DNA from: Candidatus Magasanikiibacteriota bacterium
GTDB lineage: Bacteria; Patescibacteriota; Patescibacteriia; Magasanikbacterales; UBA922
Direction of reading: 5' to 3'
Assembly: GCA_016193335.1 (NCBI GenBank)
Contig: JACPSK010000001.1
Span: 422,962 to 486,961 of the forward strand
Length of the DNA: 64,000 nucleotides
Numbering within the stretch: the first letter of the stretch is position 1; each line of letters begins with the position of its first letter. Positions 5,099-48,242 of the stretch are shown one piece after another. The notes below the pieces were generated by a model, which worked only from the letters and a program-made list of their open reading frames with translations, was not told the origin of the DNA and made no database searches. The position numbers and the translations under genes were made by a program.

Positions 5099-5198
5099 AG
5101 AAAAAACATCTTGAAAAATCAATTCCTTCTCAATAGATTTTTGAAATTTTAACTTTCAATTTATAAATTTTTAAACAATCTTAGAGAATGATCCTCGC

Positions 5199-9177: not shown

Positions 9178-9263
9178 AATTTCTATTCTCTTAATTTCTA
9201 ATAGCTGAGTCTGCTATAAGGTATCTTTCAGATAGCGGTATTTCGTTTGGATCATTAGAAATT
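9178..9263 (+). repeat. intergenic repeat family copy B
   Basis: aatttctattctcttaatttctaat…aaggtatctttcagatagcggtatttcgtttggatcattagaaatt, flanked by AT-rich tracts. Confidence 0.6.
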
Positions 9264-9294
9264 ATGTCATTACAAATTGTTTAAAAATTATAAA

Positions 9295-10491
9295 TTAACG
9301 CAAAGCTTCAATCCCCGGCAGTTTTTCGCCGGACAAAAACTCAAGCATCGCTCCTCCGCCCGTTGACACCAAATCAATATATTCTGTCATGCCCGCCATA
9401 TCCATACTTTGTAAAGTTTCACCACCGCCTATCACGCCATAGGCTTTACCTTTTGAACGGGAGGCAACGAGACGAGCTACGGCCAAAGTAGCCACATCAT
9501 AAGGCTTTTGTTCAAATACTCCCATGGCGCCGTTCCATACGAGAGTCTTGGCTTGTTTTATATAAGACGCGAAAAGACGAACGGTTTTCGGCCCCATATC
9601 AAAAATCGCTTCATTTTTTTTGCAGATCAGATGCGGCTTTTTCTCAATATCCACCACTCTAAAAGAACTGCCTCGCGGATTTCCCACCACCAGGTCCAGC
9701 GGCTTAATGACTTTTTTATTTTTGCCGTAAAGCATCGCCTTCCGCGCAAGGTCTTTCTGGACCAAAGAAGCTCCCACACCATAGCCGCGGGCGTATAAAT
9801 AGGTGTTTACCAAAGCTCCTCCGAGCAATATATTTGTTACCTGAGGCAAAAGATGTTTGATAACCGGAATTTTGGTCTCAAGTTTGGCTCCGCCCAACAC
9901 AAGCACAAAAGGTCTTTTTGGCCTTTTCATCACTTTTTCCAAGCCTCTTATTTCTTTTTCCAAAAGCAAACCGGCGTAAGACGGGAGAAAACGCGTGATT
10001 CCAAGCACCGAGGCCGCGGGACGATGAGCCACCGCAAAGCCGTCGAGCACAAATATGTCGGCCAGGCTTGCGAACAGCTCTGCCAATGACTTGTCATTTT
10101 TTTCTTCTCCAGAAGAAAAACGCGTATTTTCAAGCATGGCGATTTGAGAATCTTCCAGATGATTTATTTCAAAACGCACTTTATCCGCTCGCTTCTCAGA
10201 CCAGCTCCAATTTCCCGTATTTATATATTTCACGCCCTTGCCGAGCATAATGCCAAAATGTTCGGCCACCGGAGCAGTAGAAAATGATGGCACTATTTTG
10301 CCCCCCGGCCTGCCAATATGAGTAAGCAAAATAATCTTAGCTCCTTTTTCCATTAAATACTGAACTGTGGGTAAAGATGCTTGCAAACGAGAATGATCAA
10401 GCACTCGGTTCTTCAATAGAGGTACGTTAAAATCCACTCTCAGCAAAACGCGCTTTCCCTTCAATTTTTTTAAACTTTTGATGGATTTCAT
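9295..10491 (-). CDS. pgk: phosphoglycerate kinase
   Basis: VLLRVDFNVP…; full length. Confidence 0.95.
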   Translation of the reverse strand: MKSIKSLKKLKGKRVLLRVDFNVPLLKNRVLDHSRLQASLPTVQYLMEKGAKIILLTHIGRPGGKIVPSFSTAPVAEHFGIMLGKGVKYINTGNWSWSEKRADKVRFEINHLEDSQIAMLENTRFSSGEEKNDKSLAELFASLADIFVLDGFAVAHRPAASVLGITRFLPSYAGLLLEKEIRGLEKVMKRPKRPFVLVLGGAKLETKIPVIKHLLPQVTNILLGGALVNTYLYARGYGVGASLVQKDLARKAMLYGKNKKVIKPLDLVVGNPRGSSFRVVDIEKKPHLICKKNEAIFDMGPKTVRLFASYIKQAKTLVWNGAMGVFEQKPYDVATLAVARLVASRSKGKAYGVIGGGETLQSMDMAGMTEYIDLVSTGGGAMLEFLSGEKLPGIEALR

Positions 10492-10507
10492 AGCAGGAGT
10501 CTTTTCT

Positions 10508-11536
10508 TCACTTCTTTTTTAAAGTCTTCCCTACCTTTTCAGCCATCTCCACCAGACGGTTGGCATAGCCCCATTCATTGTCATACCAAGCCAATACTTT
10601 GACCAAATTTCCTCCGACTACAAGGGTAAATTCAGCGTCTACAATGGAAGAATGGGTGTTGCCGATAAAGTCGCTGGACACCAAAGGCTCGTTTGTAACA
10701 TCAAGTATGCCTTTTAAATATGTCCGAGACGCTTTATCCAGAACCATGTTAACTTGTTCTTTGGTCACCGTTTTCTTCAAGACAAACGTGAAATCAGTAA
10801 GAGAAACCGTAATGGTGGGAACTCGAACAGACAAGCCGTCGAATTTACCAACCAAACTGGGAATCACTTTCGCAGTGGCTTTTGCCGCTCCAGTGCTGGT
10901 CGGGACCATATTTTGTGCCGCGGCGCGAGCTCTTCTCAAATCTTTGTGTGGACCGTCTTGCAAGTTTTGGTCCGCGGTATAAGAATGAATCGTGGTCAGC
11001 ATTCCCTTTTCAATGCCGAAAGAACGCTCCATGACTTCGGCCACCGGAGCAGCCGAATTGGTGGTGCAGGAAGCATTGTCTATGATCAGTTCGTCTTTAT
11101 AAGATTCGCAATTTACTCCGCGCACGTAGGTCTTTACTCCTTCGCCTTTTGCCGGAGCGGAAATGATAACCCGCTTCGCGCCTGCCGCGAGGTGAGCGGC
11201 GGCTTTTTCTTTGCTGGTAAAAACTCCGGTTGATTCTACCACCACGTCAATGCCCAATTTCCCCCATGGTAATTTTGACGGCTCTTTTTCGGCCGATGTT
11301 TTGATTTTTTTACCATCAATAATGAGATGCTCTTCATCATACTCCACACGATGAGCAAAATCTTGATACGCGGTGTCATATTTCAAGAGGTGAGCCAAGG
11401 TACGAGTATCGGTCAAATCATTTATAGCCACCACTTGGATGCCCTTTTTCTCCCAAGCCACTTTGCAAGCATGCCGCCCGATCCTTCCGAATCCATTGAT
11501 TGCGATTTTAATCATAGAATTGTTTAAAAATGTCAA
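10508..11536 (-). CDS. gap: glyceraldehyde-3-phosphate dehydrogenase
   Basis: IKIAINGFGRIGR, SCTTN (catalytic Cys) and WYDNEWGY. The start may be the internal Met at 11515. Confidence 0.95.
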   Translation of the reverse strand: MTFLNNSMIKIAINGFGRIGRHACKVAWEKKGIQVVAINDLTDTRTLAHLLKYDTAYQDFAHRVEYDEEHLIIDGKKIKTSAEKEPSKLPWGKLGIDVVVESTGVFTSKEKAAAHLAAGAKRVIISAPAKGEGVKTYVRGVNCESYKDELIIDNASCTTNSAAPVAEVMERSFGIEKGMLTTIHSYTADQNLQDGPHKDLRRARAAAQNMVPTSTGAAKATAKVIPSLVGKFDGLSVRVPTITVSLTDFTFVLKKTVTKEQVNMVLDKASRTYLKGILDVTNEPLVSSDFIGNTHSSIVDAEFTLVVGGNLVKVLAWYDNEWGYANRLVEMAEKVGKTLKKK

Positions 11537-13726: not shown

Positions 13727-15322
13727 TCACTTCTTTTTGTTCTTACCACCACCCTTCTTCGGGTGGTCCTCCTTGGCCGGCGCCTCGGGCGCGGGGACCT
13801 GGTCCGAGGCCGTGGGCACCTCGACCTGATCGGCCGCGGCCTCCGCCACCTCGTCGGGGACGGACGGCATGGTCTCCGCGGCATCGGCCTCGGCCGTGGG
13901 CTCCGTGGCCAGGACGACCTCGGTGGCCGGCTCCGGCGCGACGGCCATGCCCTGGTCGGCCTTGGCCACCGCCTCGTCCTCGACGACCGACGTGGGCTCC
14001 GCCACAAGGTCAGCAGACGCGACCGGCACCGCCTTCGGCTCCCGCTTGGGCTCGGGGAGGCCGAGCTTCCGGCGGACCATGCGGTCCAGCTCGGTCGAGC
14101 TCATACCCCCCGCGGCCTTACGGAAGGCCTCGGCCACCGGTTCGACCCGATCATCCGCGGGGTTCTCCTGGTGGTGCTTGGCCTGGCGCTCGGCCGCGGC
14201 CTCCTTGAGGAGGCGCGTGACATCGAGGTTCCCGAGATCCGCGTCCTCGGGGAGAGCATCGACGATGCGCCTCGCCGACTTGTTGGCGGACTTGACGGTG
14301 GGCACGCCGCCCATCCTCACCAGCCGCTCCCCGATCTCATCCACGAGTCGCTTCTTCGCCATGCGACGCGTGCGCTTGGCCTCGTCGGCCTCGGCCAGCG
14401 CCAGGAGCTCGGCACGCTCGGCCTCGATCTCCTCGCGGCTCCGCGGCCGGGGCATGCTGAAGAGCATGGCCAGCTCGGGGAGCTTGCGGGCCTCCCGAGC
14501 GATATTCATCTTCTGCGGGTCATCGGCGCTGATCTCTCGGATCTGTTCCTTGGTCATCACGCCGTGAGCCCGGAAGACCCTCTCCAGCTTGTCGAGCAGA
14601 TTCTGGAGCGTCCGAACCCGCTCCCGGTAGAGGCCGACGGCCTCGCCGGTGAGGTTCGGCTGGTCCTTCCGGAGCATGCCCTGGAGCTTGCGCATGTGCA
14701 TCTCCGTGAGGATGACGAAACGCATACCCGCGGACCACTTGGCGTTCCGCCAGACCAAGTCCGGGAAGATCCCGGCCAGCTCGGTCCGCAGGGGGTGCCC
14801 CACCTCGATGGGCCCGCGCTCCGGCGGCGGGGCGACCACGCGGGCCGTCTGTCCGCCCTCGTCCGCCAGCATGGCCGTGCCGGCCTTCGAGTGGCCGTTG
14901 CCACCGACCTTGCCCTTGGGGGTCTCGACGGCGGGCGGCGGGGCCACGGGCGCGGGCTCGGCGGGCTCCTCGTCGTCCTCGAACAGGAAGGCCATGGCCG
15001 CGGCCTGGGCCGCCTTGGCCTCGGCGATCTGCGCCTCGACGCCGCGCTTCCACTTCGTGACCATGAGGCCGCGACCCTCGGGGGTCGCGAGGAGATCCTC
15101 GGCCTTCATCGCAGCCAGACCGCGGAGGATCCGCTCGGACTTGGCCTTCGCCGCCTCGTCCTTGGCCACGGCCTGTTCGGCCTTGGCCTTCGTCGTCTTC
15201 TCCTCGATCAGCTGGACCGCGGTGGCCAGCAGCTCCTCGTTCGTGGGCTCACGGACGGTCGTGCCGTCCGACGTGAAGAAACCCGACTCGGATGCCACAA
15301 CCGCCTGCGTCTCATCGCTCAT
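13727..15322 (-). CDS. hypothetical acidic Ala/Glu/Lys/Pro-rich protein (~533 aa) in a high-GC island; no family recognised
   Basis: Continuous minus-strand ORF with G/C at nearly every third codon position. The start is taken at MSDETQAVV, and the tail ends KKGGGKNKKK. The flanks are AT-rich. Confidence 0.55.
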   Translation of the reverse strand: MSDETQAVVASESGFFTSDGTTVREPTNEELLATAVQLIEEKTTKAKAEQAVAKDEAAKAKSERILRGLAAMKAEDLLATPEGRGLMVTKWKRGVEAQIAEAKAAQAAAMAFLFEDDEEPAEPAPVAPPPAVETPKGKVGGNGHSKAGTAMLADEGGQTARVVAPPPERGPIEVGHPLRTELAGIFPDLVWRNAKWSAGMRFVILTEMHMRKLQGMLRKDQPNLTGEAVGLYRERVRTLQNLLDKLERVFRAHGVMTKEQIREISADDPQKMNIAREARKLPELAMLFSMPRPRSREEIEAERAELLALAEADEAKRTRRMAKKRLVDEIGERLVRMGGVPTVKSANKSARRIVDALPEDADLGNLDVTRLLKEAAAERQAKHHQENPADDRVEPVAEAFRKAAGGMSSTELDRMVRRKLGLPEPKREPKAVPVASADLVAEPTSVVEDEAVAKADQGMAVAPEPATEVVLATEPTAEADAAETMPSVPDEVAEAAADQVEVPTASDQVPAPEAPAKEDHPKKGGGKNKKK

Positions 15323-15497
15323 GGTCGCAATCTCCAATCGAACGCCGATGCGTTCGATATCAAAAAAATTAAGAACACACTCAAAAGCCTCGCAAACCCA
15401 AGGTACGACCCCAAGAAAGCGTGACTCGAGCCAGAGACTATAGCGAATGATAATGAATTTGTCAAGTATAGGCCTCAACAGAGCGAAAAAATCGCCC

Positions 15498-15526
15498 TTG
15501 ACAGCGAAAAAGCCGAGTGTTATACT
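15498..15526 (+). promoter_or_regulatory. consensus sigma70 promoter TTGACA-17-TATACT
   Basis: TTGACA at 15498-15503, a 17-nt spacer, then TATACT at 15521-15526, ~40 nt upstream of the rpmE ATG. Confidence 0.6.
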
Positions 15527-15564
15527 GTTTTAACTTTACTTATCTAGAATTTTGCGAGCAAAGT

Positions 15565-15933
15565 ATGAAGCAAAATATCCATCCGAAATCTCACCCCGTG
15601 GTTTTTGTGGACAGCTCTTCTCATACGGAATTTATCACCACTTCCACTTTAAGTTCAGAAAAAACCAGAGACATAGACGGCCTCACTCATTTTGTAATCC
15701 CCATAGAAATTTCTTCTGCCTCTCATCCCTTTTTCACGGGCAAACAAATCTTGGTGGACACTGCCCGGCGCGTGGAAAAATTCAAAGAAAAAATGGAAAA
15801 AGCAGTAAAGGCTTCCGGCGAGCGCAAAGGCAAAAAAGTAAAACGAGTAGCCCGCGCCAAAAAACAAGGGGATAATGAAAATGAAATTGAAAAAAAGAAA
15901 ATAGAAGAAGTAAAAGCCAAAGAAACAAAATAG
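15565..15933 (+). CDS. rpmE: 50S ribosomal protein L31 (type B-like, no Cys motif) with a Lys-rich C-terminal extension
   Basis: MKQNIHPKSHPVVF…SHPFFTGKQ, then a KK-rich tail. The track ORF from 15517 starts inside the promoter. Confidence 0.8.
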   Translation: MKQNIHPKSHPVVFVDSSSHTEFITTSTLSSEKTRDIDGLTHFVIPIEISSASHPFFTGKQILVDTARRVEKFKEKMEKAVKASGERKGKKVKRVARAKKQGDNENEIEKKKIEEVKAKETK

Positions 15934-15946
15934 CTAAGCGCAATGA

Positions 15947-15976
15947 TAAAACAGGCTTCTTTGGCCTGTTTTTGAT
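15947..15976 (+). terminator. intrinsic terminator after rpmE
   Basis: aaaacaggc-ttctttg-gcctgttttt. Confidence 0.6.
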
Positions 15977-16113
15977 TTGAGAAATGAGCCACGCCTCTTG
16001 GACTTATTTTAAAAAATGGAATCTACAAAAATACAGAACAGAATCATAATCCTTGAGCCTCTCAAAGCTTTAGACGCGAGCGAGGTCTTCTCATTCACTT
16101 TAATGGATATCCT

Positions 16114-17184
16114 ATGAACCAAAAATATCAAGAATTAAAAAATAAATTCAAGGCACTCGAAACAGAGCTGCAAAATCCGGCTCTTGTTCGGGACGGCCAA
16201 AAAATGAAAGAACTGTCTCAAGAATTCAATGAATTAAAAATAATAATGGGAAAAATACAGGCCCTCGAAAAAACCGAGAATGACCTTTCTCAAACCGCAG
16301 AACTGCTGGAGCATGAAAGCGACGCTTCTCTCAAAGAACTGGCAGAACAAGAATTAAAAACACTCGAGGAAACACAAAATATCTTGGAACAAGAGCTCTC
16401 TGAACTCTGCCGCCCCAAAGATCCTCTGGACAAAAAAAATGTAATCATGGAAATCCGGGCCGGAGCCGGAGGAGACGAAGCGGCTCTCTTTGCCGGCGAT
16501 CTTCTGCGCATGTACCTGCGCTATGCTGAAAACAAAAAATGGAAAACAGCGCTTCTGAGTGAAAATCAAATCGGCATAGGAGGCTACAAAGAAGTGATTT
16601 TTTCCATGGAAGGAAGCAATGTATTCAAAGACATGAAGTATGAAATGGGCGTCCACCGCGTGCAACGCATACCGGAAACCGAAAAATCCGGACGCGTCCA
16701 CACCTCCACGGCGAGCGTGGCCGTGCTTCCTGAAATAGAGGAAACCGAATTTGAAATCAATCCCGGCGATCTGCGCATAGACACTTTTTGCGCGGGCGGG
16801 CATGGAGGCCAGAGCGTAAACACCACTCATAGCGCAGTGCGCATTACCCATATCCCCACAAACACAGTCGTGCAATGCCAGGATGAGCGATCTCAAACTC
16901 AAAACAAATTGAAGGCTATGAATGTTCTTAGAGCCCGTCTCTACGAAATGGAAAGAGAAAAACAAAAAACAGAGCTTGATCAAAAACGAAAAAGCCAAAT
17001 CGGAAACGGAGACCGAAGCGAAAAAATACGAACTTACAATATACCCCAAGACCGCATTACCGATCACCGGATCAAAGAGAGCTGGAATAATATTCAGACT
17101 ATTTTGAACGGGAATCTGGAAAATCTCATTGAAACTTTGAGGGCGGCGGATTATAAAGATCAAAGCGATTCAGTAGACGCATAA
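16114..17184 (+). CDS. prfA: peptide chain release factor 1
   Basis: A PET (PxT) tripeptide and GGQ in [22 protein letters not shown]. Confidence 0.9.
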
Positions 17185-38663: not shown

Positions 38664-40103
38664 ATGAGACGTCGTGAATTCTTAAAAGGATTAGGGGCCG
38701 GAGCAGCTACTCTATTTTTTACTGGTGACAAAGATAACAAACCAACTCCAGCGCCAATGGAGTCCGAAACCGAGAATGAGAGAGAAAGACCTTTTAGTTA
38801 CAGTGACTTTCTGGAAGGACGCCCTGAATTTTCAAAAAACGCGGCATTGTCTGAACGCGTAGAACAAGCATGGGGAGACGGCACGGCCCTGCTCGATTAT
38901 GTGGCTGATCGCATTCCAGCTGTCATGTCCATTGATTTCCCAAAATCCAAACCTATCAACGAGCTCCTACGCAAAAATTATCCGAAAGTCGTCCCTAACA
39001 TTTTTCTGCAAGACCAGGCTGAAAATGAACTAAGACAAATAGGCCAATGGCTCAGTCTCCTCGCACATATTGCTGGCGCAGAAAGACCATACACGCCAAA
39101 GCTTGTGGACCAGGTGCTTGATTATCTCTACCAAAATAGGGGAACGGGCTTGGCTGATAGAAGTGAAAGTCACATCATGTCGCTCGAAGGCGAACTCGCT
39201 GAACATGCGCCGCAAGACTCTCGCCTACTGTCTCTCATCGAGCAAAGATACAAACAAGGAATTTCAAGCTCTTCGGGTAGTAATGACGACAGTGTTTGGC
39301 ACACAGAGGACGCCAGATTTCCAAGCACACCAGAATTAAGCTGGCTTATGGCCACAGCCGCTCGTTTGCATATGGGGTATGATGAAAAAAAATTTCGTTT
39401 AGTAGAAGAACTCGCTTACGACTTTGATACTGAAGGCAGACAAATATTCAATAACCGAATACCCGAAGTACAGGCATCACCACGAGATTTGGCTGAAGTG
39501 GCATTATACTATATGACTCCTCCAAAAAGTGAGTCAGATCGGCGACGTATTACCATGTCCGGAAATTGGGGCTTTATTGAACATGGCGCCCACGTTGTCC
39601 ATGGAGGACTGCTTCTTTTAGGAACTTACCAAAAAGAAATGGCTGATCGTGATCCTGAACTGCTCAAAAATTTACGCGCTCAGACTTACGAATCGATAAA
39701 AGAGATACTTTTCTATCGTCATTCAGACTCTATTAAAGACAAAAATAAACCTAACCAACAACGAGCGCACGAAGATTACCTCTACGGCGGCCACTTACTG
39801 CAAGCCGTGCTTGATGAACAAGCTGGCGCTATTTTTGAGATACAGGGTGAATTTTTCACCGCTCAGCAAGTCTATACCAAATACGGATCAGAGATTGCAG
39901 AACATGCGGAAAAAATAACAAAAAGTGAAAAACCTGTCACAGACTATGACGCGCTTGATGTATTAGCCACCATCGCAGATCTAGCCGCAAGCGACCTCAG
40001 ACCTGTCGTAGAACACAGCACAGCATCAAAAAGTTCGGTACCTTTTTATGTCGGCCACACCATAGCCGGGCTCAATAGATTAAGGGAAATTATAAAAAAA
40101 TAA
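38664..40103 (+). CDS. hypothetical secreted protein with a twin-arginine signal
   Basis: MRRREFLKGLGAGAATLFF (an RRxFLK Tat motif). No domain recognised. Confidence 0.5.
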   Translation: MRRREFLKGLGAGAATLFFTGDKDNKPTPAPMESETENERERPFSYSDFLEGRPEFSKNAALSERVEQAWGDGTALLDYVADRIPAVMSIDFPKSKPINELLRKNYPKVVPNIFLQDQAENELRQIGQWLSLLAHIAGAERPYTPKLVDQVLDYLYQNRGTGLADRSESHIMSLEGELAEHAPQDSRLLSLIEQRYKQGISSSSGSNDDSVWHTEDARFPSTPELSWLMATAARLHMGYDEKKFRLVEELAYDFDTEGRQIFNNRIPEVQASPRDLAEVALYYMTPPKSESDRRRITMSGNWGFIEHGAHVVHGGLLLLGTYQKEMADRDPELLKNLRAQTYESIKEILFYRHSDSIKDKNKPNQQRAHEDYLYGGHLLQAVLDEQAGAIFEIQGEFFTAQQVYTKYGSEIAEHAEKITKSEKPVTDYDALDVLATIADLAASDLRPVVEHSTASKSSVPFYVGHTIAGLNRLREIIKK

Positions 40104-40166: not shown

Positions 40167-41105
40167 CTATTTTCGGCCGGCTTCAAAATCCAAGATCCAC
40201 TCGTTCGCCTCGGTGAACCTCTCGTAGAGCCAGGTCTTGATGGCCAGCTGATCTTCCGCCTCATCCGGCAGAACGCCAGGCGGCTCCACCAGCTCAAAAC
40301 GCACGAGAGCGCGAGTGCCCCCGTCTTGTGCTTTTCGAGCCAGCATATCCCAAGATTCGGTTTCACCATCCGGCTCAAGGCCGGGAGAAAACGCGGTGCT
40401 CATAAAGACCACCTGGGCTCCCGGAACCCCGCGGATCAAGGCCTGCGTCCCCCGGTAAGAAGGCGCGAGAGTCCGAAGGCTTTTTAGACTCAACAAAGGA
40501 TACCCCATGCCATGAAAGAAACGCAGGGCATCGGCGCGGCGGCCTCGGAAAGGCCTGCTCCTATCCGGAAAGAGCATAAAGAGCGGCGCCCGCTCACCAT
40601 TCAGGTTCGCAAGCCCTGCTTTGATAGCCGAGACCGCGGAGTCGCCCTTGCGCTTGCGGATAAACATGCCGCGAGCCAGCTTGACTCCAATGGCGAGCGG
40701 TATTGCTTGCCAGCGGTGCTTGGCGTCCGCCACCACGCGGGGCACCTTGCCACCGAACAAGTCAAGGATGTGTTCCACCATCCCCGGGATCACAGAGGTA
40801 AAGGGATGCGGGCCAATAAGCAGAATAGGTCGTTCATGGTCTATTCCCTCAAGACCCTGTGTCTCCCTTTCAACTTTCAAACCAAGGGATGGATAGCACT
40901 CCTTCATGGTCTCGACAATCCAGGACCGTACATAGGGCGCCATTTCCTTGCCCCTGATCCAAACCGCCCACAAAGCCCGCGCAAAAACCCAGCGGGTCAA
41001 AATCACCAACGCGCGCCACAAAATGCGTTTGCCGGAAACAAAATCAGGCGTTTTGCTCATCTCAGCCATGTTGCGTCCCTCCGTGTTTCCTATTTCTTCT
41101 ACCAT
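40167..41105 (-). CDS. hypothetical protein in a GC-rich island; weak acyltransferase-like resemblance (…LFPDRSRPF…)
   Basis: G/C-rich third codon positions. The family call is tentative only. Confidence 0.4.
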   Translation of the reverse strand: MVEEIGNTEGRNMAEMSKTPDFVSGKRILWRALVILTRWVFARALWAVWIRGKEMAPYVRSWIVETMKECYPSLGLKVERETQGLEGIDHERPILLIGPHPFTSVIPGMVEHILDLFGGKVPRVVADAKHRWQAIPLAIGVKLARGMFIRKRKGDSAVSAIKAGLANLNGERAPLFMLFPDRSRPFRGRRADALRFFHGMGYPLLSLKSLRTLAPSYRGTQALIRGVPGAQVVFMSTAFSPGLEPDGETESWDMLARKAQDGGTRALVRFELVEPPGVLPDEAEDQLAIKTWLYERFTEANEWILDFEAGRK

Positions 41106-41694: not shown

Positions 41695-41975
41695 GGTGGC
41701 TTTCCTTTCACAGTTTCACACGGGGGACACCTCTCTTTTTAGAAATTTTCCTAAAAAAGGAGCTGGCCCCTTCACAAGGTGTGAAGGAAAAAGTAAAAAA
41801 TGATCCTACTTTCTAATAAGTTAACGAATGAGTATAGCACAAAAATGGGCTTTTGTCAATCTTCTGTACCAAAAAACCCTTATTTAAGAGCTTTTTTATT
41901 CATTTGAAAAATCATCGGCTATACACACCAAAACACTTGAAAGCCAAAACCAAACCATGCTACAATAAACTAAAT

Positions 41976-43046
41976 ATGCGTGAAAAATCAGACATAACCG
42001 ATACAAAAAAATGGGGATCCGAAACCACCCGAAATGGGTGGTTTTTTATTGAACAGGGTTCAAAATTAAAAAATACAGAGTCTTGGAATCTAAGACAGCA
42101 ATTTCTTGAAACGATAAAACAAAAAGGCGGCTGGGTAAACTGCCACGCGCACATGGACAAGGCTTTTTATATTTCCAGACAAAGACTGCAAAAAGCGGGT
42201 TTGGATATGGCACAAAAATGGAGAATGAGTGATGATACAAAAAAGAAAGATACTCAGGAAGACGTTGAACATAGAATTAGAAAAGTCCTGGATATTATGA
42301 TAGCCCAAGGTGCGCGGCATGCGGCAACCTTTATAGACGCCTACGAGGCGATGGGGCACAGAGCTATAGACGCGGCTCTGAAGGTGCGGAAACTCTACAA
42401 AGATAAAATAACACTGACTCTGATCTCGCATCCGCTCGGCGGCCTCTTGGACAAAAAATCACAACGCCTGTACATGGAAATTACCGAGAAAGCCGACATC
42501 GCCGGGGGTCTGCCATCTTATGATAGGCCTTATGACGCAAAAAATTTTGATATCCTGTTCAGCATCGCACGGCATTTAAATAAGCCTCTGCACATTCATA
42601 TAGATCAAGAAAATAATCCCCATGAGCGGGACTCTGAAAAACTCGTGTATTACACAAAAAAGTACAAATACGAACATAGAGTAACTGCAATCCACGTCAT
42701 TTCCCTCTCATCCCAGAGTGAATCGTATCGAAAAAAAATCTATAGACAATTCGCCAAGCTTGGCATTTCGGTGATCGTCTGCCCTTCCGCGGCCATCAAT
42801 ATGCGCCAACTTGAGAACTATGAAGCGCCGGTACATAATTCAATAGCCAATGTACCTGAGATGCTCGAAGCCGGAGTGTTGGTAGGTCTGGGAGTGGACA
42901 ATATATGCGATTTCTACAATCCCTTCGGAGACGCGGATCTCTGGTTTGAAAGCCGCTTGCTCATGGATGCCTGCCGTTATTATGACTTTGATCGAATGAT
43001 AGATATATGCACTGAAAATGGAAAAAAAATTCTTGAAATAAAATAA
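41976..43046 (+). CDS. amidohydrolase-superfamily metal-dependent hydrolase (cytosine-deaminase-like)
   Basis: VNCHAHMDKAF (an HxHxD metal motif). A promoter TTGAAA-18-TACAAT ends 9 nt before the ATG. Confidence 0.65.
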   Translation: MREKSDITDTKKWGSETTRNGWFFIEQGSKLKNTESWNLRQQFLETIKQKGGWVNCHAHMDKAFYISRQRLQKAGLDMAQKWRMSDDTKKKDTQEDVEHRIRKVLDIMIAQGARHAATFIDAYEAMGHRAIDAALKVRKLYKDKITLTLISHPLGGLLDKKSQRLYMEITEKADIAGGLPSYDRPYDAKNFDILFSIARHLNKPLHIHIDQENNPHERDSEKLVYYTKKYKYEHRVTAIHVISLSSQSESYRKKIYRQFAKLGISVIVCPSAAINMRQLENYEAPVHNSIANVPEMLEAGVLVGLGVDNICDFYNPFGDADLWFESRLLMDACRYYDFDRMIDICTENGKKILEIK

Positions 43047-43130: not shown

Positions 43131-44747
43131 ATGAAAGAACAAAGTACCTACACGCATATCGCCTCTTACGAGCCCAAGGATCCGAGCGAAGTAAAACGAG
43201 TGGTGCTCCTCTACTCCGGCGGACTCGATACTTCGGTAATGCTCAAATGGATTCAAGACAGATACCACGCGGAAGTGATAGCTCTTTGCTTGGACATTGG
43301 CCAGCTTGCCGATGACCTGGAATTTATAAAACAAAAGGCGCTTAAACTTGGCGCGATCAAAGCCATTGTGCTCGATTGCAAAGACGAATTCGCTGACAAA
43401 TATATTTCCCGGGCTATAAAAGCCAACGCCTGCTACCAGGGAGACTACCACCTCAGCACGCCCATCGGCAGACCTCTTCTCGCCAAAAAAGCGGTGCAAA
43501 TCGCTTTTGAAGAAAAAGCCGACACGATAGCCCACGGCTGTACGGGCAAAGGCAATGATCAGGTCCGCTTGGAAGGCACCGCCGTTACGCTCAATCCGGA
43601 CATCAAAATTATCGCCCCTGTCCGCGAATGGGGCATGGGGAGAGACGAAGAAATAGCTTACGCGGAAAAACACGGTATTCCCATAAGCCATAGCGCAAGC
43701 AAGCCCTACAGCCATGATGACAATATGTGGGGCGTAACCAGCGAAGGCGGAGAAATAGAAAATCCGGAACTCATCCCGCCCCTCGAAAATATTCTTGAAA
43801 TAAGCACTCCGCCCAAAAAAGCTCCGGATCAGGAAGAATTGGTACATCTCGAATTTGTAAAGGGCCTACCAGTTTCTCTCAATGGAGAACAAATGAAACT
43901 GAGCGAATTGGTCATACGGCTCAATCGCTTGGCCGGCAAACATGGGGTGGGAATCGTGCACCATCTGGAAGACAGGGTGGTGGGTTTGAAAGTTCGAGGC
44001 TTGTACGAACAGCCCGCGGCTCATGTCATTATCAAAGCACATAAAGAACTGGAAAAATACGTCTGTACCCGGCATGAAAACAAATTCAAAGAATTGGTAG
44101 ACCAAGAATGGGCATACCTGTGCTACGGAGCGCTTTGGTACGAACCGCTCATGAAAAATCTTTCCGGTTTTATAGACACGGTGAATGAAAAAGTAAATGG
44201 CACGGTAACCCTAAGACTGTACAAAGGAAATTGCGACGTGGTGGCTCTCAAAACTCCTGATGCCCTGTTTGACGAAAAACTGGCCACCTTCAATAAAAAC
44301 GATTTGTTCAATCAAAATGCCTCACCCGGTTTCATTGAGCTGTGGACTTTGCAAATGAAGATGGCTCGACAGACCAAAAAAAATATCCTGTTTACGGTGA
44401 GCGGAGCAAAAAAACAAGAATTACTTCAAAGTATGCGAGACTTGCAAAAATTAAATTGCATATTGTACGCCACCAAACATACCAGCGAATTTATGGAACA
44501 GCATGACATCGTCAACAAACTGGTGCACAAAATTTCAACCCAAGAAAGGCCGAACATTGAAACGCTCATGCGAGAACGCCGTTTTGACCTTATCATCAAT
44601 ATACCTTCTCCAGAAGGAAACGGAGAACAAAAAACCGATGGGGAAAGAATGCGAGAACTGGCCGTGGAGCACAATGTCCCTCTCGTCACTGACGTGGATG
44701 TGGCCAAAAGCATGGTGGAAAAACTCAAACAAATATACGAACGCTAA
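43131..44747 (+). CDS. argG: argininosuccinate synthase fused to a C-terminal MGS-like (CarB C-terminal type) domain
   Basis: N-terminal part: VLLYSGGLDTSV…AHGCTGKGNDQVR (ArgG). The C-terminal ~130 aa (ILFTVSGAKKQELLQ…LYATKHTSEF…DLIINIPS…) resembles a methylglyoxal-synthase-like domain. Confidence 0.8.
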   Translation: MKEQSTYTHIASYEPKDPSEVKRVVLLYSGGLDTSVMLKWIQDRYHAEVIALCLDIGQLADDLEFIKQKALKLGAIKAIVLDCKDEFADKYISRAIKANACYQGDYHLSTPIGRPLLAKKAVQIAFEEKADTIAHGCTGKGNDQVRLEGTAVTLNPDIKIIAPVREWGMGRDEEIAYAEKHGIPISHSASKPYSHDDNMWGVTSEGGEIENPELIPPLENILEISTPPKKAPDQEELVHLEFVKGLPVSLNGEQMKLSELVIRLNRLAGKHGVGIVHHLEDRVVGLKVRGLYEQPAAHVIIKAHKELEKYVCTRHENKFKELVDQEWAYLCYGALWYEPLMKNLSGFIDTVNEKVNGTVTLRLYKGNCDVVALKTPDALFDEKLATFNKNDLFNQNASPGFIELWTLQMKMARQTKKNILFTVSGAKKQELLQSMRDLQKLNCILYATKHTSEFMEQHDIVNKLVHKISTQERPNIETLMRERRFDLIINIPSPEGNGEQKTDGERMRELAVEHNVPLVTDVDVAKSMVEKLKQIYER

Positions 44748-44765: not shown

Positions 44766-45689
44766 ATGAGTAAACCGAATATTTCGGTATCTTTCGCAGG
44801 CATAACACTAAGGAACCCAACTATCTTGGCTTCCGGCATTTTGGGAGTGACAAAATCTTCCCTAAAGTACGTAATAAAACACGGAGCCGGAGCCTGCGTG
44901 ATCAAATCAATAAGCCTTGAACCGAGAAGCGGCCATAGGGCACCCAATATGCATCCCGTGGAAGGAGGATTTTTGAACGCGGTCGGTTATTCCAATCCCG
45001 GCTTGGAAGAAGCAAAACGAGAATTTTTACATCTATCAGACCTGCGAGCTCCGGTGATAGCGAGCATCATAGGAAAAGACGCTGAAGAATTTGCCAAAAA
45101 TGCTGAACTTTTTTTGAGCGATGAATTCGCAGCCGTGGAAGCTGTACTGTCTTGCCCACACACACCCGGATACGGGACTCTCGCAGGCCAAGGCAGTCCG
45201 GAAGCTACTGAAAAAATTACCAAAGCGATTAGAGCAAAAACCAAACTGCCTTTATTTATAAAATTATCCCCTCAGAGCGAACCAATCTCAGAAGTCGCGA
45301 AAGCGGCGGAAGCCGGCGGAGCGGATGGCATCACGGCGATCAACACCGCGGGCCCGGGAATGTATATAGACATAAAAACACGAGCGTCTGTGTTACATTT
45401 TGGCATGGGAGGACTTTCAGGACCGGCGTTGAGGCCCATTGCCGTGCGATGCGTTTATGATATATACAAGTCAGTAAAAATTCCCATAATAGGAGTAGGC
45501 GGCATCCAATCCGGAAGAGATGCCATAGAAATGATGATGGCAGGGGCGCAGGCCGTACAGATCGGAACCGGAATTTATTACAAAGGCATTGACGTGTTTA
45601 AGCAAGTTACGGACGAGATAAAAATATTTATGGAAGAAGAGGGCATAAAAAAACTTTCAGAAATAGTCGGGGCAGCACATAAAAAATAG
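44766..45689 (+). CDS. pyrD: dihydroorotate dehydrogenase catalytic subunit (class 1B)
   Basis: LRNPTILASG…; an FMN-binding TIM barrel. Confidence 0.9.
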   Translation: MSKPNISVSFAGITLRNPTILASGILGVTKSSLKYVIKHGAGACVIKSISLEPRSGHRAPNMHPVEGGFLNAVGYSNPGLEEAKREFLHLSDLRAPVIASIIGKDAEEFAKNAELFLSDEFAAVEAVLSCPHTPGYGTLAGQGSPEATEKITKAIRAKTKLPLFIKLSPQSEPISEVAKAAEAGGADGITAINTAGPGMYIDIKTRASVLHFGMGGLSGPALRPIAVRCVYDIYKSVKIPIIGVGGIQSGRDAIEMMMAGAQAVQIGTGIYYKGIDVFKQVTDEIKIFMEEEGIKKLSEIVGAAHKK

Positions 45690-45710: not shown

Positions 45711-45822
45711 TGCCTACTTATCCCTTTATAACATATTTTTATGAATCCTGCGGAGTCAGCTCGCTTCGCTCTCGCATTCATCCTTAGGCTTTCTAAAATA
45801 TGTTATAAAGGATAGGTTCCCG
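45711..45822. repeat. ~105-bp palindromic element, copy 1 (terminal inverted repeats atccctttataacatatttt / aaaatatgttataaaggat)
   Basis: Homologous to 62121-62232 along its whole length, including the cgcttcgctctcgca core. Confidence 0.6.
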
Positions 45823-45850: not shown

Positions 45851-45949
45851 GAAGCTTCGTACATAATGTTTTTTACAATGGCAACTGTTTGAGTCCGGCT
45901 TCGGCCGGGCGAGTTTTGCCATTGTAAAAAACATTATGTACGAAGCTTC
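45851..45949. repeat. perfect 34-bp inverted repeat flanking a 31-nt loop that contains a ccggc-UUCG-gccgg hairpin
   Basis: The arms are 45851-45884 and 45916-45949, exact reverse complements. The right arm contains the first ATG of the pyrK ORF. Confidence 0.6.
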
Positions 45950-45974
45950 TCCAACAAAATCCCCTATAAATTAT

Positions 45975-46805
45975 ATGAAAGACATACTGCCTGATGTGCA
46001 AAAAACCCTGCCCATCAAAAATATCACGAACGAAAATCCGCATGTAAAAACCTTTTGGTTTGAACATACTCTGCACTCCAAACCGGGTCAATTTGTGATG
46101 CTCTGGATTCCCGGCCTGGACCAAAAACCCTTTTCAATTTCTTATGATTATGGAGACAAATTCGGTTTGTCCATATTTTCGGTGGGTCCTCTGAGCTCTG
46201 TATTGTTTAATACCACAAAGGTTGGGGACAAGATTGGAATCACCGGCCCTTATGGAAAATCATTTTCAACCGGAAAGCACAAACACTACATTGCCGTTGG
46301 CGGAGGATACGGGTCGGGGCCTCTCGGATTTCTGGCTGAAATTTTGGAAAACACGGGCGTCACCCTTGACTTCTGCGTAGGGGCCAAAAACAAGGATTTA
46401 CTTCTTTTTGAAGAGCGAGCAGCAAGACTTTCTCATGTTAGCGTGCATGTGGCGACAGACGACGGTTCCAAAGGACACAAAGGATACGTTACAGAATTGC
46501 TTGAAGATATATTAAAAAAAAGAAAAGATAAAAAAGACATCATCGTTTCGGCTTGCGGCCCTGAGCTTATGGAAAAAACGGTTCTTGATCTTGCGAACGC
46601 GTATGACGTCAACTGTGAGCTGAGCATCGAACGTTATATGAAATGCGGTTTCGGAATCTGTGGACAATGCTCGGTGGATCCACTTGGTATTCCTTTATGC
46701 ACAGAAGGCCCGGTGCTTTCAAAAGATACGGCGAACAAGCTGACTGAATTCGGAGCTTATCACCGGAATAAATGCGGGGGAAAAGAATATTACAAACCAT
46801 CATAA
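45975..46805 (+). CDS. pyrK: dihydroorotate dehydrogenase electron-transfer subunit
   Basis: An FAD/NAD-binding domain and a C-terminal 2Fe-2S cluster motif (CGFGICGQCSVD). The start is taken at MKDILPD, outside the hairpin. Confidence 0.85.
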   Translation: MKDILPDVQKTLPIKNITNENPHVKTFWFEHTLHSKPGQFVMLWIPGLDQKPFSISYDYGDKFGLSIFSVGPLSSVLFNTTKVGDKIGITGPYGKSFSTGKHKHYIAVGGGYGSGPLGFLAEILENTGVTLDFCVGAKNKDLLLFEERAARLSHVSVHVATDDGSKGHKGYVTELLEDILKKRKDKKDIIVSACGPELMEKTVLDLANAYDVNCELSIERYMKCGFGICGQCSVDPLGIPLCTEGPVLSKDTANKLTEFGAYHRNKCGGKEYYKPS

Positions 46806-46822: not shown

Positions 46823-47443
46823 ATGAATAATGTAATACAAATTCTCATTTCTGTGGGCGCCATTATGCCTAATGATCATTTTGTGGGTACTTCCGGCAGG
46901 CATCTTGAAGCTTACATAAACAAAGACGCTTTGTATCCTCATACCAAAGAGACTTCCCTTATCGGAGCTTATTTCGCCGAGGCACACAAAGGACTGGACA
47001 TACACCTGGTAGCAGGCCCCGCCATGGGTGGGATTATTCTTTCACAATGGACTGCCCGACATCTTTCTGAACTAAAAGAAAAAGAAATTCTTAGCGTCTA
47101 TGCTGAAAAAAAAGAAGGAGTCTTAACCTTAACCCGAGGTTATGACGCGCTGGTAAAAGGTAAAAATGTGCTTGTGGTTGAAGATCTCACCACCACGGGA
47201 GGATCGCTTGCCGCCGTGATAGACTTAGTCAAAAAAGCCGGGGGCTCTGTGCTCGCGGCGTCTGTAATGGTAAATAGAGATCCTGAATATGTGTCTGAAT
47301 CCAGTTTCGGAGTGCCATTCACAAGTCTCGCCGAATACAGAACCCCATCCTACACGGCCGAAGAATGCCCCATGTGCAAGCAAAATATGCCCATCAATCT
47401 GTCTCTCGGCCATGGAGCAAAATTCCTCGCGGAAAAAAAATAA
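46823..47443 (+). CDS. pyrE: orotate phosphoribosyltransferase
   Basis: VLVVEDLTTTGGS (PRPP-binding). Confidence 0.8.
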   Translation: MNNVIQILISVGAIMPNDHFVGTSGRHLEAYINKDALYPHTKETSLIGAYFAEAHKGLDIHLVAGPAMGGIILSQWTARHLSELKEKEILSVYAEKKEGVLTLTRGYDALVKGKNVLVVEDLTTTGGSLAAVIDLVKKAGGSVLAASVMVNRDPEYVSESSFGVPFTSLAEYRTPSYTAEECPMCKQNMPINLSLGHGAKFLAEKK

Positions 47444-47458
47444 TCTCATACATCATAT

Positions 47459-48242
47459 GCCCAGTTACTCCGAGCGATCAAAACTTTGTCCCAACCCAAC
47501 CGCCAAAGCTCTCTTGGAACTCATGGAACAAAAGGAGAGCAACCTTTGCGTGGCCGCGGATCTTTTGAACAAACAAGAAATACTAAACCTTACTGACAAC
47601 ATAGGAGCAGAAATTTGTGTGCTCAAAACGCATATAGATATTGTGGAAGATTTTGACAATGAATTTATTATCGAACTCCAACGGCTTTCGGAAAAACATA
47701 ATTTTTTTATTTTTGAGGACAGAAAATTCGCGGACATCGGCAACACGGTCGTTCATCAATACCAAAACGGAATCTATCACATCGCTGACTGGGCCCACAT
47801 CACCAACGCTCACAGCATACCCGGGCCCGGGATCATAGAAGGACTCAAAAAAGTAGGCCTGCCCAAAGGTAGAGCTCTTTTGCTTCTTGCGGAAATGAGT
47901 TCAGAAGGAAATCTTGCACAAGGCGCATATACAGAAAAAACCATCAAGATGGCGGAACAACATAGAGATTTTGTGATTGGTTTCATCAACACCAAAACGA
48001 TTTCCAAAAATTCGTCTTTTATCAATTTTAGTCCCGGTGTCCAGTTCAAAACAAAATCAGACAGTCTGAAACAAAATTATCAGGACCCTGAAGAAGCCAT
48101 TCTGCGGGGATCAGACATTATTATAGTAGGCCGCGGTATCTATGCTTCGGCAGACCCTGTCCAATCCGCGCAAAATTATAGAAAAAAGGCCTGGGGGGCC
48201 TACAAGAAACGCGAATCTTTACAAATCAATCCAAATCCTTGA
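47459..48242 (+). CDS. pyrF: orotidine-5'-phosphate decarboxylase, eukaryote-like (URA3-type)
   Basis: LCVAADL, and IFEDRKFADIGNTV…IADWAHITNAH, which closely matches the yeast URA3 / human UMPS ODCase motif. Confidence 0.9.

Follow-up and report, generated by a model that had tools for sequence, protein, structure and literature searches.

An argininosuccinate synthase fused to a CarB-type allosteric domain and linked to an amidohydrolase in pyrimidine operons of Patescibacteria

An argininosuccinate synthase with a C-terminal extension

The window analyzed here, a 64-kb stretch of DNA (64,000 nucleotides) from a Candidatus Magasanikiibacteriota bacterium (contig JACPSK010000001.1), carries at positions 43131 to 44747 of its forward strand a gene for an argininosuccinate synthase (ArgG) joined to a C-terminal domain of the methylglyoxal synthase (MGS)-like fold. 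The gene is an uninterrupted open reading frame (ORF) of 538 codons plus stop, running from ATG to TAA, and its product is hereafter called ArgG-MGS. A gene for an amidohydrolase (AH) precedes it, and pyrD, pyrK, pyrE, and pyrF follow it. A preliminary description of the window had named these neighbors, had read the protein as a canonical ArgG of ~400 amino acids (aa) followed by a regulatory domain of the carbamoyl-phosphate synthetase (CPSase) type, and had proposed that the two form a salvaged module for arginine/pyrimidine cross-regulation. The gene positions and both domain assignments agree with our results, and the neighborhood proved to be conserved, whereas the proposal itself had to be revised in part.

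The ArgG catalytic core occupies residues 20 to 416 (43188 to 44378, forward strand), which is the alignment span of model PRK00509, and it comprises the N-type ATP pyrophosphatase P-loop SGGLDTS (residues 29 to 35), the HGCTGKGNDQVR motif, the synthetase C-terminal domain, and a C-terminal helix. Pfam places Arginosuc_synth (PF00764, 222 bits) at residues 23 to 184 and Arginosuc_syn_C (PF20979, 238 bits) at residues 193 to 411, and both NCBIfam ArgG equivalogs pass their cutoffs, namely PRK00509 with 521 bits (cutoff 334) and TIGR00032 with 468 bits (cutoff 268). The closest solved structures, ArgG from L. pneumophila (362 bits) and from T. thermophilus (355 bits), align with the core end to end. 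Among the T. thermophilus positions that we take, from structures and UniProt annotation, to be the ligands of ATP, citrulline, and aspartate, Y84, T116, N120, D121, R124, S173, E258, and Y270 are identical in ArgG-MGS, and S182 is replaced by Thr. By family models and substrate-binding residues, residues 20 to 416 are thus a canonical argininosuccinate synthase, and argininosuccinate is the expected product.

Compared with canonical ArgG (EC 6.3.4.5; T. thermophilus 1J1Z/1KOR and L. pneumophila 6XNQ), to which it shows ~43-44% identity in structural alignment, ArgG-MGS keeps the P-loop as well as the citrulline, aspartate, and ATP ligands, but it differs in having ~125 more C-terminal residues and in its gene context, which is a pyrimidine operon rather than arg genes. 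An AlphaFold2 (AF2) model of the protein (pLDDT 80.9, pTM 0.71) resolves into two domains of high confidence, joined by a segment of low confidence (residues 381 to 414). The solved ArgG chains span only ~390-400 residues of this model, and a fold search with it found the ArgG-plus-MGS architecture in no solved PDB structure.

The extension is a CarB-type allosteric domain

The C-terminal domain (residues ~416 to 538; 44376 to 44744, forward strand) was assigned by Pfam, by CarB models, and by PDB matches. Pfam MGS (PF02142) covers residues 430 to 520 with 60-64 bits, against a gathering cutoff of 24.1, and the tail alone aligns to positions 928 to 1048 of the 1,058-position CarB model PRK05294 (E 1e-15). 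When a profile of 28 tails was searched against the PDB, the allosteric domain of human CPS1 (2yvq; 8.5e-16) and residues 944 to 1044 of E. coli CarB (4.9e-9) were recovered, and in the fold search with the ArgG-MGS model, CPSase chains ranked next after those of the ArgG superfamily (ArgG and nitrile synthetase). The tail profile scored 43 bits against E. coli CarB; among the matches of a search with a CarB from the candidate phyla radiation (CPR), some CarB tails gave as much as 128 bits, and that of the Peregrinibacteria protein P0510 gave 124 bits. Methylglyoxal synthase models (TIGR00160 and PRK05234) reached only 14-15 bits against the tail (E 0.016-0.024), far below their cutoffs of 84-147, which rules out methylglyoxal synthase (MgsA) activity. 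Neither the protein nor the 64-kb window contains CPSase synthetase domains; the protein thus bears a CarB-type domain and is not a CarB.

The tail is the faster-diverging part, with a mean identity to the query of 47% vs 75% for the core, yet it has discrete invariant columns. In E. coli CarB numbering, the invariant or near-invariant columns are Lys954, Thr974, Thr977, Lys993, Asn1015, Asp1025, Arg1030, and Thr1042, and the position of Ser948 holds Ser or Thr. The putative effector-site residues of ArgG-MGS itself are K428, T448, T451, K467, N490, D503, R508, and T520, all of them at positions that vary little or not at all across the tails. For the columns other than Thr977, Lys993, Ser948, and Thr1042, we take the roles to be those seen in the IMP complex of CarB. 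IMP binds within the CarB allosteric domain, Thr977 and Lys993 are crucial to both inhibition by and binding of UMP, a Ser948Phe substitution eliminates the response to UMP and IMP, and Thr1042 contacts the ornithine carboxylate (PMC6245113). The alignment shows, therefore, that the tail retains the residues that in E. coli CarB bind the phosphate and ribose of UMP/IMP and, in the case of the Thr, ornithine.

By its profile matches and conserved residues, the tail is a CarB-type allosteric domain rather than a generic MGS fold, which makes the earlier assignment more specific. It belongs to the same Pfam family as the CPSase allosteric domains (E. coli CarB residues 937 to 1073, 1CE8 with IMP; the N-acetylglutamate-binding domain of human CPS1, 2YVQ), and it keeps equivalents of all nine CarB residues listed above. 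It differs from them in three ways: it is not borne by CPSase synthetase domains but by ArgG and, as described below, by other partners; Thr1016 and Thr1017 of CarB are replaced by Ile and Pro; and the carbamoyl-phosphate domain residues that complete the ornithine site in CarB are not present in ArgG-MGS.

The fusion is conserved across Patescibacteria

Only the unusual architecture speaks for an artefact, such as a missed stop, a frameshift, or a chimeric assembly joining argG to a fragment of carB. The preliminary description had itself raised the matter of read-through and of a search for the same fusion in other genomes. Of the 120 best clusters at 90% identity, 119 contain the same three Pfam domains; these clusters span 59-100% identity and lengths of ~530-545 aa and draw on many independent assemblies. 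ArgG and MGS also lie within a single ORF in 92 of the loci fetched, and read-through or sequencing error is thereby excluded as the origin of the fusion. Further, a protein identical to ArgG-MGS is present on several independent contigs, and the tail has a conservation pattern of its own; the probability of an artefact is accordingly negligible. The carriers are essentially all Patescibacteria/CPR (Magasanik-, Moran-, Roizman-, Torok-, and Parcubacteria, among others), and the few contigs labeled otherwise are fragments of 3-4 kb.

In public records ArgG-MGS is named "argininosuccinate synthase" and AH "amidohydrolase family protein." Under the former name, automated reconstructions score a partial arginine pathway. 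In our literature search, no paper described an ArgG joined to MGS, a role of ArgG in pyrimidine synthesis, or PRK06886-type amidohydrolases together with ArgG. An ArgG with a transplanted CarB sensor is thus an ArgG variant for which we found no earlier account.

The partner amidohydrolase belongs to the CodA/AtzC clade

AH (41976 to 43046, forward strand) is 356 aa long as annotated, with a conserved core of ~323 aa that begins at residue ~34. It matches the NCBIfam model PRK06886 (NF005365, "hypothetical protein") with 352 bits, just above the cutoff of 340. Against the PDB, the AH family profile found AtzC (1.9e-39) and CodA (5e-39) as its best matches, and no dihydroorotase (DHOase), hydantoinase, or allantoinase even at E ≤ 10. 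An AF2 model (pLDDT 90.2) agrees with this placement: cytosine and 5-methylcytosine deaminases and AtzC are found at TMq 0.70-0.78, with E. coli DHOase at rank 44 (TMq 0.38). By sequence profile and predicted fold, AH is a mononuclear subtype III amidohydrolase of the CodA/AtzC clade, yet of a distinct family, PRK06886.

The metal ligands H57, H59, H208, and D308 and the catalytic histidine H240 are conserved in AH, on the same barrel as in CodA (cytosine deaminase) and AtzC (N-isopropylammelide isopropylaminohydrolase). In AtzC, the active site comprises the metal ligands His60, His62, His217, and Asp303, together with His249, Lys65, Asn304, Trp309, Gln160, and His219 (PMC4577212). Among these, the metal site, His249, Lys65, and Asn304 are kept in AH (the last two as K62 and N309), the aromatic lid residue Trp309 is Tyr314, and Gln160 and His219 are replaced by Leu and Asp. 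AH has an invariant Asp210-Gln211 pair of its own and an invariant Lys81-Trp82 lid; His208 is nearly invariant, whereas Ile209 and the segment Glu212-Asn-Asn-Pro are invariant among close relatives only. AtzC also offers a chemical precedent, as it hydrolytically expels an alkylamine (isopropylamine) from a guanidine-like ring carbon. AH differs from both enzymes in being ~80-100 residues shorter (~323-aa core vs 401-423 aa), and it lacks CodA residues Gln156, Glu217, and Asp314, in whose places it has Leu154, Gln211, and Asn309.

Two assignments were rejected. A cytosine deaminase is ruled out by these three replaced catalytic residues; the corresponding NCBIfam models score 101-106 bits on AH, against cutoffs of 403-483. 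A CPR version of PyrC is ruled out by the lack of DHOase similarity and by the coexistence of a true DHOase with AH in two loci, L103 and L104, described below.

Organization of the operon

Downstream of ArgG-MGS on the forward strand lie pyrD (44766 to 45689), the class 1B-type catalytic subunit of dihydroorotate dehydrogenase (Pfam DHO_dh, 244 bits); pyrK (45936 to 46805), its electron-transfer subunit (Pfam DHODB_Fe-S_bind and NAD_binding_1); pyrE (46823 to 47443), an orotate phosphoribosyltransferase (Pfam Pribosyltran) whose start was set by length agreement with relatives (206 aa, as in the L004 homolog); and pyrF (47457 to 48242), an orotidine monophosphate decarboxylase (Pfam OMPdecase, 198 bits) of 261 aa with its start set by homology. 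The start of pyrK is uncertain, as its first ATG (45936) falls within a perfect 34-bp hairpin and the next lies at 45975. The six genes from AH to pyrF are separated by 84, 18, 246, 17, and 13 bp, and no strong terminator-like site was found on the forward strand within this run. A candidate promoter, identified by consensus match in a scan (10 of 12 positions), lies at 41937 to 41966 on the same strand and ends 10 bp before the AH start; it consists of TTGAAA, an 18-nt spacer, and TACAAT, with TG before the -10 element. The short spacings, the lack of a strong terminator, and the promoter-like site before AH are consistent with a single operon. The 64-kb window contains no carA, carB, pyrB, pyrC-type DHOase, or argH, which bears out and extends the earlier statement that carA/carB, argH, and pyrB are missing from it. 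Searches for Rfam families and tRNAs found neither in the window.

The spacer between pyrD and pyrK contains two perfect hairpins (45723 to 45811 and 45851 to 45949) with arms of 17 nt and 34 nt, 100% complementary, and its RNA folds at -112 kcal/mol (z = -10.9 vs shuffles). The arm sequence has no other copy in the window. The same spacer in L033 holds another inverted repeat, of 43 nt and imperfect, and those of L004, L014, and L027 have none. The hairpins are candidates for an attenuator, a processing site, or a small mobile element.

ArgG-MGS and AH form a conserved two-gene cassette

For a census of gene linkage, relatives of the window from species-representative genomes, contig look-ups, and 80 metagenomic loci were combined into 75 non-identical ArgG-MGS loci, of which 43, with 1.2 kb or more of sequence on either side, were evaluable. 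In 37 of these AH lies no more than 6 kb from ArgG-MGS, and in 28 no more than 500 bp; in another 4 its slot is filled by AH447, a second deaminase-type amidohydrolase that is closest to 8-oxoguanine deaminase. One or the other is therefore found within 6 kb in 41 loci, and neither in 2. The amidohydrolase, which the preliminary description had rightly listed as a neighbor but treated as a bystander, is thus the most constant partner of ArgG-MGS. Where at least 4 kb is available on both sides (28 loci), pyrD lies within 10 kb in 16, and a DDAH/arginine-dihydrolase-like hydrolase is present in 5; aspartate ammonia-lyase also recurs in the clusters. Unbiased clustering of the flanking ORFs recovered a divergent pyrE family in 24 loci and a type-2 pyrF family in 23. 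The order is AH, ArgG-MGS, pyrD, pyrK, pyrE, pyrF in Magasanikbacteria, the group of the window, and usually ArgG-MGS, AH, pyrD elsewhere. ArgG-MGS and AH hence constitute a two-gene cassette that is conserved across many CPR lineages and heads pyrimidine operons.

Canonical pyrimidine genes were sought by phmmer with CPR PyrB, PyrC, CarA, and CarB and with E. coli PyrB (an exact match to 1ekx) as probes; as a positive control, the E. coli PyrB detects CPR PyrBs at ~1e-62 to 1e-69. In the window and in the flanks of the cassette (10 kb on either side) in loci L001 to L102, these probes detected no PyrB/ornithine transcarbamylase (OTC), PyrC-type DHOase, CarA, or CarB, with three exceptions: the carA/carB of L057 and L081, two fragmentary operons of the L104 and L103 types, and an ordinary CarB in the Bacteroidota locus L020.

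The operons occur in three states. In L103 and L104 both entries are present, in the order CBS, ArgG-MGS, AH, carA, carB, pyrB, pyrC (DHOase), pyrD, and L104 continues with pyrF, pyrE, upp, and pyrG. L105 is a related operon with the canonical genes and without ArgG-MGS and AH. In most loci, including L079 and the window, the cassette is followed by pyrD without carAB, pyrB, or pyrC in the operon. Such a pattern is expected of alternative entries to one pathway, and the persistence of intact pyrD/K/E/F in cassette-only loci implies a need for a source of dihydroorotate. Some CPR lineages commonly have CarB, and among the matches listed almost every CarB retains its own MGS domain. This is also true of CarBs whose genes share an operon with ArgG-MGS, so that the tail represents a duplicate of the module, and "salvaged" does not hold as a general statement.

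The Bacillus-type order of pyrimidine genes is pyrB-pyrC-carA-carB-pyrK-pyrD-pyrF-pyrE. The cassette resembles the canonical operon entry (carA-carB-pyrB-pyrC) in lying immediately before carA or pyrD and in that its first enzyme bears the same allosteric domain as CarB. It differs in its enzymes and, if the hypothesis developed below holds, in the donor, as citrulline would take the place of carbamoyl phosphate by way of argininosuccinate; in L103 and L104 it coexists with the canonical entry.

Some loci hold further genes of interest. A small CBS-pair protein is encoded directly upstream of ArgG-MGS in L103 (979 to 1452), L104 (5532 to 6029), and L079 (3061 to 3675); in L105, which has no cassette, its gene precedes carA instead. 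The protein may be an additional part of the regulation. L105 also has, between pyrB and pyrC, a fumarate-reductase/succinate-dehydrogenase-like flavoprotein (FAD_binding_2/Succ_DH_flav_C) and a Fer2_3 iron-sulfur protein (14157 to 16486), followed by an aspartase-like lyase. No DHO_dh gene is present in the region fetched for L105, and the flavoprotein and Fer2_3 protein may be a different dihydroorotate-oxidizing system. In the Roizmanbacteria-type loci L006 (7133 to 9843) and L063 (10441 onward), ArgG-MGS is followed by the 447-aa 8-oxoguanine-deaminase-like amidohydrolase, a 454-aa protein that matches neither Pfam nor NCBIfam models, and weak pyrE-like and uracil phosphoribosyltransferase (UPRT)-like genes, with no pyrD nearby; in L006 a DDAH-like gene also follows ArgG-MGS.

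The CarB-type module recurs on other partners

Searched with AH, the library of 50%-identity representatives gave five proteins of ~480 aa (P0247, P0249, P0259, P0268, and P0274) in which the MGS domain stands N-terminal to AH, so that in some lineages the supposed bystander carries the module itself. The N-termini of these MGS-AH proteins keep a vestige of the helix that ends ArgG (IELLKLNLKLA vs IELWTLQMKMA), which indicates fission of an ArgG-MGS/AH gene pair and subsequent re-fusion. In L101, the MGS-AH gene (9245 to 10699) adjoins pyrD, and no ArgG is found within 10 kb.

The module is also fused to a domain resembling the asparaginyl-tRNA synthetase (AsnRS) core and archaeal asparagine synthetase A, in proteins of ~500 aa encoded in L044 (4694 to 6190), L042 (7171 to 8682, reverse strand), L071 (7198 to 8712, reverse strand), and L037 (10509 to 11294). 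In L044 the gene for this AsnA-like-MGS protein sits between AH and pyrD, and the protein could, speculatively, be an ATP-dependent ring-closing enzyme that adenylates the beta-carboxyl group. Finally, stand-alone CarB-type MGS proteins of ~145 aa with intact effector residues are encoded between AH and pyrD in L067 (11388 to 11840) and nearby in L042 (6739 to 7167, reverse strand). The effector-site residues are conserved in all four contexts (ArgG, AH, AsnA-like, and stand-alone), which argues for a portable ligand-sensing module. As judged from these alignments, the CarB allosteric domain is a portable module that CPR bacteria have joined to at least three different aspartate-related enzymes.

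A possible citrulline-fed entry into pyrimidine synthesis

We propose, tentatively and at somewhat less than an even chance, that the cassette provides a citrulline-dependent entry into pyrimidine synthesis, with the entry step under nucleotide feedback. In such a route, ArgG-MGS would join citrulline and aspartate, with ATP, to form argininosuccinate. The citrulline would be scavenged or derived from arginine-type guanidines by the DDAH-like hydrolase often found in the cluster, which might alternatively cleave a substituted guanidine itself, and the aspartate could be supplied by aspartate ammonia-lyase. A metal-bound hydroxide of AH would then attack the guanidino carbon and expel the N-delta amine of ornithine, in a reaction of the same class as the expulsion of isopropylamine by AtzC. 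Argininosuccinate readily forms a cyclic six-membered anhydride. The AH product would be N-carbamoyl-aspartate (the product of PyrB) or, if that anhydride is the substrate, directly dihydroorotate, which is both the product of PyrC and the substrate of PyrD. PyrD/K, PyrE, and PyrF would complete the path to UMP. On balance, the ureido group of citrulline would be transferred to aspartate without carbamoyl phosphate, aspartate transcarbamoylase, or (possibly) DHOase.

A CarB sensor on ArgG makes sense in this scheme because ArgG would be the first committed enzyme of the branch; the domain would place the alternative first step under the control of UMP-type nucleotides and possibly ornithine, as in CarB, and in L104 the two entry enzymes, CarB and ArgG, would carry the same sensor. 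The cassette would coexist with carA-carB-pyrB-pyrC in some lineages and be the only operon-encoded source of PyrD substrate in most. Somewhat less probable again is the broader claim that ArgG-MGS and a PRK06886-type amidohydrolase make up an undescribed de novo pyrimidine route, and that this is the sole route in many reduced CPR genomes.

The citrulline-fed entry is favored by the canonical ArgG site, the linkage to AH and pyrD, the three operon states, the lack of PyrB, PyrC, and CarA in nearly all flanks searched, the AtzC-type residues of AH, the conserved effector-site residues, and the recurrent suppliers of ArgG substrates. Three more points speak for it. As judged from the structures, hydrolysis of the bond between the ornithine nitrogen and the guanidino carbon of argininosuccinate would give exactly ornithine and N-carbamoyl-aspartate; the MGS-AH fusions with their ArgG helix remnant, one of them beside pyrD, constitute a Rosetta-stone link between the two enzymes; and enzymes of the CodA/AtzC clade hydrolyze C-N bonds at amidine and guanidine carbons. 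Other points weigh against it. Argininosuccinate is a putative AH substrate, suggested by gene context and clade, and AH differs from AtzC at Gln160 and His219. A genuine ArgH (TIGR00838, above cutoff) is encoded inside ~8 clusters, which implies a conventional fate of argininosuccinate there. As L103 and L104 carry complete carAB-pyrB-pyrC, the cassette is not essential beside the canonical route; the ATP cost of the proposed route would equal that of carbamoyl-phosphate synthesis. Loci of the Roizmanbacteria type, with AH447, often have no nearby pyrD. Lastly, a DHOase is needed if AH yields carbamoyl-aspartate, and none was identified in cassette-only operons.

Three other versions were rejected or set aside. 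Strict replacement of carAB/pyrB/pyrC by the cassette in genomes lacking CarB is ruled out by L103 and L104, and the claim was weakened to that of an alternative entry. A reversed ArgH/ArgG pair that, with AspA, would act as an ATP-conserving arginine deimination route leaves the linkage to AH and pyrD unexplained, and ArgH and AspA are both absent from the 64-kb window. Urea or carbamate as an alternative ArgG substrate was set aside, since the ligands of the citrulline amino-acid group are intact.

Alternative explanations

The most serious rival, which we regard as somewhat less probable than the citrulline-fed entry, holds that the cassette ArgG serves ordinary arginine synthesis from scavenged citrulline via ArgH, with pyrimidine/purine nucleotides and ornithine tuning the pathway through the CarB-type domain and with AH in a separate pyrimidine role. 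It fits an ArgG that is canonical at the equivalog level, the true ArgH inside ~8 clusters, the presence of pyrB and pyrC beside the cassette in L103 and L104, and the place of the E. coli counterpart domain at the crossroad of arginine and pyrimidine synthesis (PMC6245113). Yet ArgH is missing from the 64-kb window and from most clusters, and ArgF/OTC from every flank. The rival also leaves unexplained the near-obligate linkage to AH, the MGS-AH fusions with an ArgG helix remnant, the placement directly before pyrD, and what feeds PyrD to PyrF in cassette-only operons. The cross-regulation suggested in the preliminary description thus survives as one possible reading, whereas gene context speaks at least as strongly for a metabolic entry through ArgG-MGS and AH.

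Two further readings are weaker than arginine synthesis. It appears improbable that the MGS module serves chiefly for docking or oligomerization, assembling ArgG, AH, and other aspartate-using enzymes into a complex rather than sensing a ligand. The module does occur on ArgG, on AH, on the AsnRS-core/AsnA-like protein, and as a stand-alone protein of ~145 aa, all within the same clusters; its connection to ArgG (residues 381 to 414) is of low confidence in the monomer model; and in E. coli CPSase the allosteric domains contribute to tetramer contacts. However, the residues that are invariant in all four contexts are those that bind ligands in CarB and not a surface patch, and docking and sensing are not mutually exclusive. 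More improbable still, AH could be a pyrimidine-salvage deaminase of the cytosine, 5-methylcytosine, or isocytosine type, its adjacency reflecting a general clustering of nucleotide genes. Its nearest folds are cytosine and 5-methylcytosine deaminases, AH447 resembles 8-oxoguanine/isocytosine deaminases, and uridine kinase, UPRT, dCMP deaminase, thyA, and tmk occur in the neighborhoods. This reading is opposed by the three replaced CodA residues, by a linkage of AH to ArgG-MGS that is far tighter than to any salvage gene, and by the fusions of AH with an ArgG-derived module.

De novo pyrimidine synthesis is regarded as among the most invariant of pathways, and CPR bacteria are usually said to lack it or to possess it in part. 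A citrulline-fed entry, if real, would add a new entry point to a textbook pathway and would explain UMP synthesis in organisms that have pyrD-E-F without carAB/pyrB/pyrC. It would also tie the pyrimidine supply of CPR bacteria to host-derived arginine or citrulline and would add to the amidohydrolase superfamily a new reaction, that of an argininosuccinate ornithine-hydrolase. The finding of a portable CarB module holds even if the pathway idea is wrong.

Other observations in the window

Between gatB and the cassette, the window encodes a 479-aa protein (38664 to 40103, forward strand) that bears a twin-arginine-like signal (MRRREFLKGLGAGAATLFF) and falls into no Pfam family; its gene is conserved at this place in the near-identical contig L001. 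The gene after it (40167 to 41105, reverse strand) belongs to no family and lies within a stretch of 51% GC. A 583-aa Ala/Glu-rich ORF (13727 to 15478, reverse strand) with no Pfam match looks horizontally acquired; its block has 60% GC and a GC3 of ~0.88, and the genome has 44% GC. Lastly, tandem paralogs of cofactor-independent phosphoglycerate mutase (3521 to 5122 and 5199 to 6797, reverse strand) are located beside enolase, pgk, and gap.

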